Below are positions 3,227 to 5,177 of a stretch of DNA of 5,228 bases, piece by piece. Position 1 is the first letter of the stretch; every line of letters begins with the position of its first letter. The DNA comes from a virus (taxonomy: Duplodnaviria; Heunggongvirae; Uroviricota; Caudoviricetes): the IMG/VR virus record IMGVR_UViG_2548876953_000003, positions 1 through 5,228 of that record; one strand, written 5' to 3'. Under the pieces are notes generated by a model, which made no database searches, had not been told where the DNA came from, and saw nothing but the letters and a program-made list of their open reading frames with translations. The position numbers and the translations under genes were made by a program.

Positions 3227-3526
3227 ATGGCCTGTTCAACATTCAACCCTTTAACGTTACAGAAATACCAGCCAGACCCTGAAGATTTATGCTCACTGTG
3301 TGGCGGAAATCATGGTAAAGCTGCCATGATCGAATGTAAGGACAAAATCCACATATGCCTTAATTGCGTTGATGTCCTCGTTGATATCAAAAATGAAAGA
3401 GAAGATAAAAAGCGTAGCGAGGCTATTCGCGCCTTAGATTCATGGATGCGAGATGGGTATAGTGCTGCGCAAATTTATGACTTAGCCATTTCAAAAGGCG
3501 AAATACCAGGTGTGCGAATCGAATAA
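3227..3526 (+). CDS. Hypothetical Cys4 zinc-ribbon protein, 99 aa
   Basis: ATG 3227 with GGAG (3217-3220) 6 nt upstream (the track's start at 3215 lacks an RBS). Two CxxC pairs 18 residues apart (CSLCGG ... CLNCVD) indicate a zinc ribbon. Confidence 0.6.
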   Translation: MACSTFNPLTLQKYQPDPEDLCSLCGGNHGKAAMIECKDKIHICLNCVDVLVDIKNEREDKKRSEAIRALDSWMRDGYSAAQIYDLAISKGEIPGVRIE

Positions 3527-3561
3527 GAAGCGCACTCAAGCATCTTTTGGGGAAATCACAA

Positions 3562-3729
3562 ATGCACTTCCGAGTCACAGGTGAATTGAATGGAGAACCA
3601 TTCAACAGAGTTATCGAAGCAGAGGACATCAACGACTGCTATGACCACTGGATGATATGGGCGCAGATAGCACATGCAGACGTAACCAATATTCGAATTG
3701 AAGAACTGAAAGAACACCAAGCCGCCTGA
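3562..3729 (+). CDS. Hypothetical small phage protein, 55 aa
   Basis: ATG 3562 with GGGGA (3549-3553) 8 nt upstream; the track's start at 3547 is a TTG. Stop TGA 3727-3729 lies in the loop of the terminator below. Confidence 0.5.
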   Translation: MHFRVTGELNGEPFNRVIEAEDINDCYDHWMIWAQIAHADVTNIRIEELKEHQAA

Positions 3730-3744
3730 TGGCGGTTTTTTATT
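3719..3744 (+). terminator. Rho-independent terminator at the end of the early accessory gene array
   Basis: Stem AAGCCGCC (3719-3726) pairs with GGCGGTTT (3731-3738) including one G-U pair, loop TGAT, followed by a T-run TTTTTTATT (3736-3744). Confidence 0.65.
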
Positions 3745-3751
3745 GCCTGAT

Positions 3752-3767
3752 TTGCAGGTTCGATTCC
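3752..3767 (+). other. tRNA T-arm-like fragment (not an intact tRNA); matches my recollection of the argW tRNA-Arg(CCU) T-arm
   Basis: TTGCAGGTTCGATTCC contains the canonical T-loop GGTTCGATTCC, but the 3' partner of the T-stem and any acceptor stem or CCA are missing (next bases CTATTCGGAG). Lies between the terminator and the excisionase gene. Confidence 0.4.
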
Positions 3768-3786
3768 CTATTCGGAGATAGCACTC

Positions 3787-3987
3787 ATGCAACACGAACT
3801 ACAACCTGATTCACTGGTTGATTTGAAATTCATCATGGCTGATACTGGCTTTGGTAAAACCTTCATCTACGACCGGATTAAGTCCGGCGACCTGCCTAAA
3901 GCCAAAGTTATCCACGGTCGAGCAAGATGGTTATATCGTGACCATTGTGAATTCAAAAATAAGCTCTTAAGCCGCGCTAATGGGTAA
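3787..3987 (+). CDS. torI: AlpA/TorI-family excisionase (recombination directionality factor), 66 aa, winged-helix
   Basis: ATG 3787 with GGAG (3774-3777) 9 nt upstream. The sequence MQHELQPDSLVDLKFIMADTGFGKTFIYDRIKSGDLPKAKVIHGRARWLYRDHCEFKNKLLSRANG has the AlpA-family pattern and the length of KplE1 TorI. It is the last gene before the att-like junction. The symbol rests on recall and context. Confidence 0.8.
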   Translation: MQHELQPDSLVDLKFIMADTGFGKTFIYDRIKSGDLPKAKVIHGRARWLYRDHCEFKNKLLSRANG

Positions 3988-4003
3988 AATAGCGGGTAAA
4001 ATA
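3982..4003. repeat. Tandem direct repeat GGGTAAAATA-gc-GGGTAAAATA overlapping the excisionase stop codon; candidate integrase arm-type or RDF binding sites
   Basis: Two exact 10-bp copies (3982-3991 and 3994-4003) separated by 2 bp, about 60-80 bp from the putative att core. Confidence 0.45.
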
Positions 4004-4030
4004 TTTCTCACATCTAAAAAATACCATTCT

Positions 4031-4043
4031 AATCAATCCCCTG
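4031..4043. promoter_or_regulatory. IHF-like binding motif between the direct repeats and the att core
   Basis: AATCAATCCCCTG matches the IHF consensus WATCAANNNNTTR with one mismatch. Its position between arm-type repeats and core fits tyrosine-recombinase att architecture. Confidence 0.25.
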
Positions 4044-4060
4044 CCACTCTAAGTAGATGT

Positions 4061-4075
4061 CTGCAGGGGACACCA
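4061..4075 (+). other. Putative prophage attR core: a copy of the 3' end of tRNA-Arg (argW), CTGCAGGGGACACCA
   Basis: The sequence ends in ...GACACCA like a tRNA 3' terminus and equals what I recall as the last 15 nt of argW and the KplE1 att core. It is preceded by an 8-bp inverted partner TCCCCTGC (4037-4044) of GCAGGGGA (4063-4070). Phage-type genes lie to the left, chromosomal-type DNA to the right. Confidence 0.55.
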
Positions 4076-4515
4076 GATACCCTTCAAACGAAATCTACCT
4101 TCACCCCGTAAAAGATAGGTTTGGCAGCACACTTGCCTTATATCTACTCATTTTTACTGCAACAGGTTGAAATCTCAGCACTGTCAGAAAGCGCTGATGA
4201 CTAAACAGCCCTGGGCCGGGCGATGTAACCATCACACAGAATCCTGATAGCGAAATATGGCGTGACTCGATACTTCACTCCGCAATGCATTCCTTGATGA
4301 ATTCGCAGGACCGTGATACACGGGACAGGTCGCTGAATGACGACAATGTCCTGGAAATCAGCGAACCGCGCATCTGAAGTACATTTGAGCGACTGTACCA
4401 GAACATGAATGAGGCGTTTGGATTAGGTGATTATTAGCAGGGCTAAGCACTTTAGTATTATTATTTTCCGGTTGAGGGATAGGGAGATATCGACAACAAC
4501 CGGAAAAGTTTACGT

Positions 4516-5177
4516 CTATATTGCTGAAGGTACAGGCGTTTCCATAACTATTTGCTCGCGTTTTTTACTCAGGAAGAAAATGCCAAATAGCAACATCAGG
4601 CAGACAATACCCGAAATTGCGAAGAAAACTGTCTGGTAGCCTGCGTGGTCAAAGAGTATCCCAGTCGGCGTTGAAAGCAGCACAATCCCAAGCGAACTGG
4701 CAATTTGAAAACCAATCAGAAAGATCGTCGACGACAGGCGCTTATCAAAATTTGCCACGCTGTATTTGAAGACGGATATGACACAAAGTGGAACCTCAAT
4801 AGCATGTAACAGCTTCACTAATGAAATAATCCAGGGGTTAACGAACAGCGCGCAGGAAAGGATACGCAACGCCATAATCACAACACCGATAAGTAATGCA
4901 TTTTTTGGCCCTACCCGATTCACAAAGAAAGGAATAATCGCCATGCATAGCGCTTCGAGTACCACCTGGAATGAGTTGAGATAACCATACAGGCGCGTTC
5001 CTACATCGTGTGATTCGAATAAACCTGCATAAAAGACAGGAAAAAGTTGTTGATCAAAAATGTTATAGAAAGACCACGTCCCCACAATAAATATGACGAA
5101 AACCCAGAAGTTTCGATCCTTGAAAACTGCGATAAAATCCTCTTTTTTTACCCCTCCCGCATCCGCCGCTACGCACT
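4516..5177 (-). pseudogene. cscB: 3' fragment (about 220 codons) of a LacY-family (oligosaccharide:H+ symporter) permease, probably sucrose permease cscB, truncated at its 5' side by IS30
   Basis: The minus-strand frame open from 5184 down to stop 4516-4518 aligns with LacY residues about 195-417 (FKDRNFWVFVIFIVGTWSFYNIFDQQLF vs LacY [42 protein letters not shown] vs HMFEVPFLLVGCFKY). Similarity stops at 5177/5178 where IS30 begins, so no N-terminal half is present. The symbol cscB is inferred from family plus the argW-csc/dsd locus context. Confidence 0.65.

Follow-up and report, generated by a model that had tools for sequence, protein, structure and literature searches.

The stretch of DNA analysed here (the window, 5,228 nucleotides) covers the right end of a prophage (P22-like/lambdoid) whose integration site is the tRNA gene argW; early-left genes run through it. 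The last of these genes (60 aa, 3547-3729 in the list of open reading frames) is part of the variable left flank and homologous to the 'p35-like' gene of lambda/HK630 and to ECRS218_0063 of CUS-3. An intrinsic terminator (3719-3746), consisting of an 8-bp G+C-rich stem (3719-3738) and a T-run, is also kept in lambda/HK630, HK620, Sf6 and CUS-3. Next come a TTGC-N5-TTGC motif (3743-3755), which the HK620 annotation designates as the cII-binding site of a 'phage integration' promoter, the 16-mer TTGCAGGTTCGATTCC (3752-3767), which comprises the 5' strand of a T-arm and the T-loop, the Shine-Dalgarno sequence GGAGA (3775-3779; GGAG in all lineages) and torI (3787-3987), which encodes a 66-aa excisionase, or recombination directionality factor (RDF), 100% identical to TorI/HkaC. 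All these features are on the + strand. The excisionase function of torI has been described (PMC2951348; PMC3509656). A small inverted repeat, CCTG-atttg-CAGG in E. coli, is located between the terminator and the T-loop (3746-3758).

The 16-mer is present in one copy in the window, on the + strand and with 0 mismatches, while the chance expectation is 0.04 matches even with 3 mismatches allowed. Comparison with the empty argW locus of E. coli SL112 (locus L005; tRNA-Arg annotated at 541-615, reading ...GGGCTAATTGCAGGTTCGATTCCTGCAGGGGACACCA) identifies it as argW nucleotides 46-61, a segment that runs from the end of the variable loop through the 5' strand of the T-stem and the T-loop to two bases of the 3' stem. 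The attR core CTGCAGGGGACACCA (4061-4075, + strand) represents argW nucleotides 61-75 and overlaps the 16-mer by one C, such that the two together make up the contiguous last 30 nt of argW, split in the window by 293 bp carrying torI. ARAGORN predicts 0 tRNA genes in the window and no cloverleaf with anticodon arm and acceptor stem; upstream of torI only tRNA nucleotides 46-61 are present, and the 16-mer is neither a tRNA gene nor a pseudogene. The initial annotation, made from the window alone, had recognized a 16-nt T-arm segment of argW about 300 bp from the real core and had judged a chance origin unlikely, which is borne out: the match is exact and extends beyond the generic GGTTCGATTCC T-loop to include TTGCA, the rest of the tRNA is missing, and the fragment is framed by the terminator stem and T-run on its left and by torI on its right.

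Downstream, the P-arm repeats GGGTAAAATAGCGGGTAAAATA (3982-4003, + strand), labelled 'repeat_region attP' in HK620, are IntS arm-type sites, which carry a TAAA motif (PMC2951348). With a TorI-type RDF, a core from the 3' end of argW and TAAA arm repeats all present, the window contains the attR end of a KplE1/HK620-type module, whose attL end lies beyond the 5.2-kb window. The module found at argW in KplE1 (CPS-53), HK620, Sf6, CUS-3 and Kapi1 (Panis, Ansaldi) possesses the same TorI, core and P-arm repeats, and also the same 16-mer 19 nt before torI. In genomes that carry only attB the match begins at window position 4061, and the DNA is bacterial from 4076. The core has been experimentally defined as CTGCAGGGGACACCAT (PMC2951348; Kapi1, PMC8787464), and 4061-4075 matches 15 of the 16 bases of CTGCAGGGGACACCA(T), the 16th base being G in the attB flank of this strain.

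Inverted repeats across the attP sites (C = GRTGTC, C' = GACACC) suggest the half-sites and the overlap of the strand exchange, as classical tyrosine-recombinase symmetry predicts a 7-bp overlap TGCAGGG inside the 16-nt core. The predicted architecture occupies 4056-4074 on the + strand, with the C site GATGTC at 4056-4061, the overlap at 4062-4068 and the C'/B' site GACACC at 4069-4074. Several modules with a second type of excisionase (for example among loci L296-L302) have the perfect inverted repeat GGTGTC/TGCAGGG/GACACC. Furthermore, CCCCTGC (4038-4044, + strand), an inverted copy of GCAGGGG in the core (4063-4069), is kept in all lineages; the core follows about 18 nt further right, and with TCAAT, which precedes it, the inverted copy also looks like the T-loop/3' stem TCGATTCCTGC. 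HK620 hkaB and Sf6 gene 17 have their counterpart in a 43-aa open reading frame (3980-4111) that begins inside the last part of torI, spans the P arm and the att core and extends into bacterial DNA; a real gene is unlikely here, as the frame crosses the crossover point. On its bacterial side, attR is flanked by a gene for an oligosaccharide MFS transporter (4516-5085 and beyond, - strand), annotated as such in L005, and this flank is of the argW-csc type of the hypervariable argW-dsdC region, not of the K-12 dsdC arrangement.

The arrangement of terminator, 16-mer and torI is identical in the free phages HK620 and Sf6 and also present in CUS-3, and two loci (L009, L012) whose attR flank matches the published K-12 attR primer (PMC3509656) contain the same 16-mer. 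The exact 16-mer is found in 81 of the 86 loci with an E. coli-type TorI, always 19 nt before the ATG. E. coli genome matches that include torI start at window position ~3545, 3560, 3682, 3732 or 3737; to the right of the 16-mer, from torI to the core, the sequence is constant, while the left flank is mosaic. The lambda-type phages HK630, HK106, HK140 and DE3 share only 3545-3749 and have, beyond 3749, the cII box, xis and int of lambda itself, the joint with lambda-type modules being at about 3737-3755. The 16-mer is the left edge of the torI-attP-intS module. It had been proposed that homologous prophages might reveal a mosaic joint at 3752 with a conserved left and a variable right side; the joint exists, with the constant side on the right and the variable one on the left.

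TorI homologues were sampled from one genome per species and from viral contigs. Upstream of TorI-like genes of Serratia, Citrobacter, Pantoea, Edwardsiella and Erwinia the core GTTCGATT(C/T)CC recurs; the conserved cis element as a whole is (C)AGGTTCGATT(C/T)CC, and the 16-mer is the form it takes in E. coli. The sequence preceding the torI homologue reads tttgCAGGTTCGATTCCctattcGGAGATA in E. coli, cttCCAGGTTCGATTTCCaaaccGGAGATG in the Citrobacter type, ttCCAGGTTCGATTCCTGaaaaa in Serratia, cgCCGGTTCGATTCCTGatatc in Pantoea and gaCAGGTTCGATTCCCTGtcc in Edwardsiella and P. stewartii. Erwinia phages possess two tandem copies with a period of 16, and L115 two copies with a period of 14. In detail, the Erwinia type repeats CAGGTTCGATTCCCGT twice (L006 2482-2513; L111-L113), L114 having one copy, and the independent duplication in L115 consists of GTTCGATTCCCGC followed by GTTCGATTACC about 40 nt upstream of xis.

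In an alignment of 13 lineages the element core GTTCGATTCC is located at 3758-3767 of the window (+ strand; GTTCGATT at 3758-3765), and GTTCGATT plus a C is the sole invariant non-coding block. As only 10 of the 66 third-codon positions of torI are invariant in the same sequences (85% variable), a run of 8 invariant columns in 60 nt has a probability of p about 1e-5. GTTCGATT is found within 70 nt upstream of the gene in 134 of 156 loci and shows no enrichment in the rest of these loci (15 observed versus 12.5 expected). A scan of viral contigs for a T-loop followed by a Shine-Dalgarno sequence and an ATG, seeking other gene families behind such an element, mostly hit real tRNA genes; apart from these and from TorI, it retrieved a single case, a second excisionase family (RDF-2) with the same argW core.

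On the other hand, the element is missing from Klebsiella phage Chronis, in which torI overlaps the upstream gene, from Tatumella, from several RDF-2 loci and from Dryocola, where the terminator is directly followed by the Shine-Dalgarno sequence. In such modules (L016 of Dryocola, L297-L309, L317-L322) the terminator is joined as TTGCCTG/GAGATA or TTTGCCC/GGAGG, compared to TTGCCTG/gcttCCAGGTTCGATTTCCaaacc/GGAGATG where the element is present, the difference looking like a clean ~25-nt deletion or non-insertion. As these modules resemble a clean removal, the element behaves as a discrete unit. From this distribution we infer that the element is selected where present, yet dispensable to the module, as some modules without it look as if they work. 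It is probably a working control site rather than the debris of one bad excision, and the idea of a decaying relic in the initial annotation does not agree with a core that stays invariant across genera and excisionase specificity classes, which indicates selection.

These specificity classes emerge from the excisionases themselves. RDF-2 is 39% identical to TorI and comes with the same layout and the argW core, its arm repeats being GCGGGCATAA; RDF-2 modules mostly carry the same upstream element, as does phiEt88. Across the modules the recognition helix of the RDF covaries with the repeats of the P' arm: the helix GKTFIY goes with xAGTTCG/T, AKYFYSQ or SKYFYSQ with xTTACC (also TAACC), and DRYFYKQ with CAGAAC (also CGAAC) in inverted orientation. 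The covarying repeats adjoin the -35 region/promoter of int (P' arms of L002, L003, L006, L007, L157, L298, L307, L317, L341, L351 and L360; L362 2100-2215). There are thus apparently three DNA-specificity classes within one module architecture, all of which keep the argW core and have GTTCGATT(C/T)CC as the upstream element. As the element is unchanged while the RDF helix and the P' repeats switch, it does not follow RDF specificity. When distant modules with another tRNA target were sought, phiEt88 again had the same core and Pseudomonas AlpA/integrase pairs had another layout.

Considering conservation and specificity together, there is about an even chance that the element is a selected, tRNA-derived cis site, in which case it would most likely be a copy of the attB 'B' half-site and is predicted to be bound by integrase. 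The element would descend from tRNA/att sequence and be kept by selection as a DNA-binding site whose reader has the same specificity in all modules, the likeliest candidate being the core-binding/catalytic part of the integrase, which must recognize the same T-loop sequence in attB. The integrase is favoured as the reader as its argW target is constant, while RDF and arm specificities vary. GGTTCGATTCC is the attB sequence directly 5' of TGCAGGG, and the C sites of related attP keep TTCGAT in the same register; as TTCGATGTA and TTCGATTCC adjoin TGCAGGG, the T-loop bases fall within the predicted core-type half-site. Within the selected cis site, however, core-type binding by the integrase is a tentative preference that commands clearly less confidence than selection as such, and a host factor or another reader of constant specificity is the fallback within the same explanation.

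An integrase bound at the element would be positioned between the terminator and the ribosome-binding site of torI, about 215 bp from the P-arm sites, and could influence read-through into torI or help intasome architecture. More specifically, and with somewhat more doubt still, the element may act as an attB decoy, a copy of a half-site occupied in cis by the catalytic/core-binding domains of the integrase; from the P-arm repeats, a bound integrase would reach over to the T-loop copy, with torI in the loop between them. If true, such a decoy would make excisionase expression or intasome assembly depend on occupancy by the integrase and represent a regulatory use of a tRNA-derived half-site, which may be general for xis-attP-int modules; the literature passages searched contain no description of a regulatory tRNA-derived half-site of this kind. 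An arm-type integrase site was also considered and rejected, as the TAAA of arm sites (GGGTAAAA) is lacking from the element.

Several features weaken the half-site reading. Compared to the core-type half-sites of lambda (C, C', B, B'), which the element resembles as the attB sequence just left of the inferred 7-bp overlap, this predicted half-site stands alone: the core is 293 bp away, an overlap region is missing, no inverted partner faces it at a constant distance, and the spacing from the element to the next conserved block is 4 to 13 nt. The best-conserved part, GTTCGA, would be farthest from the would-be cleavage point, and the half-site preferred by the integrase appears to be GRTGTC, not GATTCC. 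Also, the functional in vitro attR of KplE1, a published 135-bp fragment which begins with CTCTTAAGCCGCGCCAATGG, from the 3' end of torI, and does not contain the element, supports excision (PMC3509656), so that both this fragment and some working-looking modules do without it.

With respect to origin, a derivation from tRNA or att sequence is likely. Lineages differ in the additional tRNA bases that they keep: E. coli has TTGCA on the 5' side of the element, and Serratia, Pantoea and Edwardsiella have CCTG on its 3' side. The best explanation of this pattern is a longer ancestral sequence, derived from argW and at least 18 nt in length. Of the two routes suggested initially, imprecise excision by this prophage is incompatible with the identical sequence already present in the free phages HK620 and Sf6; a modular joining at a former att site gains from the argW sequence at the mosaic joint, by which an att origin is plausible, while tandem elements at this locus did not find support. 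No simple series of integrations and aberrant excisions was found that would put a T-arm fragment directly upstream of torI.

An att origin would also fit a neutral relic, a functionless leftover of an ancestral att site or of tandem argW elements carried along with torI, possibly in the variant that a longer tRNA identity block in the ancestral attP was split when torI was acquired. That the 16-mer and the core add up to the contiguous 3' 30 nt of argW, its position at the module boundary, the different flanking tRNA bases by lineage and its absence from some modules all agree with this reading, which we nevertheless regard as unlikely. The 8-nt block is invariant whereas bases 3-5 nt off on both sides are unalignable and third-codon positions highly variable, the element persists across two RDF families, and tandem duplications arose independently. 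In non-E. coli modules, moreover, the attP sequence abutting the core reads TTCGATGTA/TGCAGGG versus TTCGATTCC/TGCAGGG in attB; as a T-loop-like TTCGAT is thus still found beside the core, the upstream copy is an additional one, and the element is probably not just the left part that remained when torI split an old identity block. Partial copies of a tRNA 3' region in or near mobile DNA at an integration hotspot are known as tRNA 'ghost' att sites; unlike these, the element is located inside a free phage genome, without a crossover segment, and is conserved across genera and not decaying.

Slightly less probable than a relic is a TorI operator, by which TorI would bind the GTTCG of the element for autoregulation of torI or for the excisive complex. 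The TorI sites in attL (I1-I5) are 8-mers built on GTTCG/GATCG/GTCCG and mediate repression of the intS promoter by TorI (PMC2951348); GTTCG, the experimentally defined recognition pentamer (PMC2951348), is contained in the element, site I4 (TGGTTCGCTTC) is identical in 9 of 10 positions to the T-loop GGTTCGATTC, and tandem copies exist in some lineages. The flanking bases, however, differ from the TorI 8-mer YAGTTCGY (AGGTTCGA): GTTCG is followed by C or T at 20 of 20 P'-arm sites, taken from four lineages, and by A in every upstream element. A TorI operator also leaves the conserved ATT(C/T)CC part, additional to sites I1-I5, unexplained; it does not account for an element that is constant where RDF and P' repeats have switched to xTTACC or CAGAAC, without the covariation with RDF specificity, and there is no detectable promoter for an operator to act upon.

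An RNA element in the leader of torI, either a T-arm mimic for a host tRNA-binding enzyme or a hairpin masking the Shine-Dalgarno sequence, is less probable again. In favour of this, a host factor would likewise not change between modules, an almost complete T-arm hairpin can form in the Edwardsiella and Serratia versions, AUUUCC of the Citrobacter type pairs with GGAGAU, and an upstream hairpin CCTGG/CCAGG shows one compensatory change and one double-wobble variant. Nevertheless, RNAalifold found 0 consensus pairs over 13 lineages, six single-sequence folds did not exceed shuffled sequences in stability (z from -1.65 to +1.1), the 3' strand of the stem lacks conservation, the loop length is 7 to 8 nt, and Rfam at E<=10 gave no match, only weak sRNA and terminator noise. 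The upstream inverted repeat, compared at the homologous positions of L027, L129 and L133, is CCTGG-ctt-CCAGG in the Citrobacter type and reads CCTGT/ACAGG in L129, the compensatory change, and TCTGG/TCAGG in L133; bases of the 5' T-stem may here take part in a hairpin or in a palindromic site.

According to the annotation of HK620 and Sf6 the site would be a cII-activated promoter of the pI type, in which TTGC-N5-TTGC recruits cII for int expression at lysogenization and the T-loop resemblance is incidental, a reading to which we attach very little probability. In its favour, lambda and HK630 have a pI box, TTGC-N6-TTGC, at the homologous place after the same terminator and directly before the excisionase gene. 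The spacing here is N5 and not N6, however, and neither repeat is conserved: about 20 E. coli variants, K-12-type loci among them, have TTAC in place of the first TTGC, and the second is gone in the Citrobacter, Serratia, Edwardsiella and Erwinia types, which keep the T-loop block, the very part that lambda lacks. There is no -10/-35 match and no recognizable -10, and no sigma-70-like promoter was detected in 3500-4200 of the window; cII promoters are weak by nature. Moreover, intS has its own mapped promoter in attL (PMC2951348). The initial annotation had assumed an overlap with the torI promoter, which agrees with the HK620 label but is not matched by a sigma-70-like site or a conserved cII box.

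The feature is already present in well-studied phages under other labels. To our knowledge, no cis elements have been recognized directly upstream of torI, and a selected tRNA-derived site in this position would be a concrete, mutable target in KplE1 (K-12), HK620 and Sf6 for questions of excisionase regulation. In this module family, control of the excisionase gene is regarded as the principal switch of prophage excision (PMC2951348). The literature on the KplE1 module describes core, arm-type, TorI and IHF sites, and the searched passages on KplE1/HK620 modules contain no mention of an element upstream of torI, nor does the literature searched mention its conservation across genera or its independence from excisionase specificity. 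The 'cII/pI' label in HK620 and Sf6 is unsupported by conservation, while the covariation between recognition helix and P' arm is usable for predicting RDF specificity.

Although CP000711, the record of CUS-3, labels the 16-mer as 'attL core' and 'attR core' (L001 3208-3223; L004 1-16), and as a direct repeat of argW sequence it does enclose nearly the entire prophage, the 16-mer is almost certainly not a genuine att core or strand-exchange site, as the left end of CUS-3 continues with TGCAGGGGACACCATTTATCAG..., the true core leading into the P' arm of HK620 attP, a chromosome with an identical right end (E. coli NU14, L161 1009-1330) has torI and the true core just beyond, the experimental core lies elsewhere, and the junction argW-16-mer-torI, expected from an exchange at the 16-mer, occurs in 0 of 5426 complete E. 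coli genomes. As the 16-mer was used as core, the CUS-3 record starts 15 nt too early inside argW and, ending at the 16-mer repeat about 310 bp too early, omits the excisionase gene torI, the P arm and the true attR core, which calls for a database correction. The attR core of NU14 (L161 1318-1332) reads CTGCAGGGACACCAT, one G shorter than the canonical core; if this shorter core is real, the overlaps of attL and attR differ and precise excision of the prophage may be impaired.
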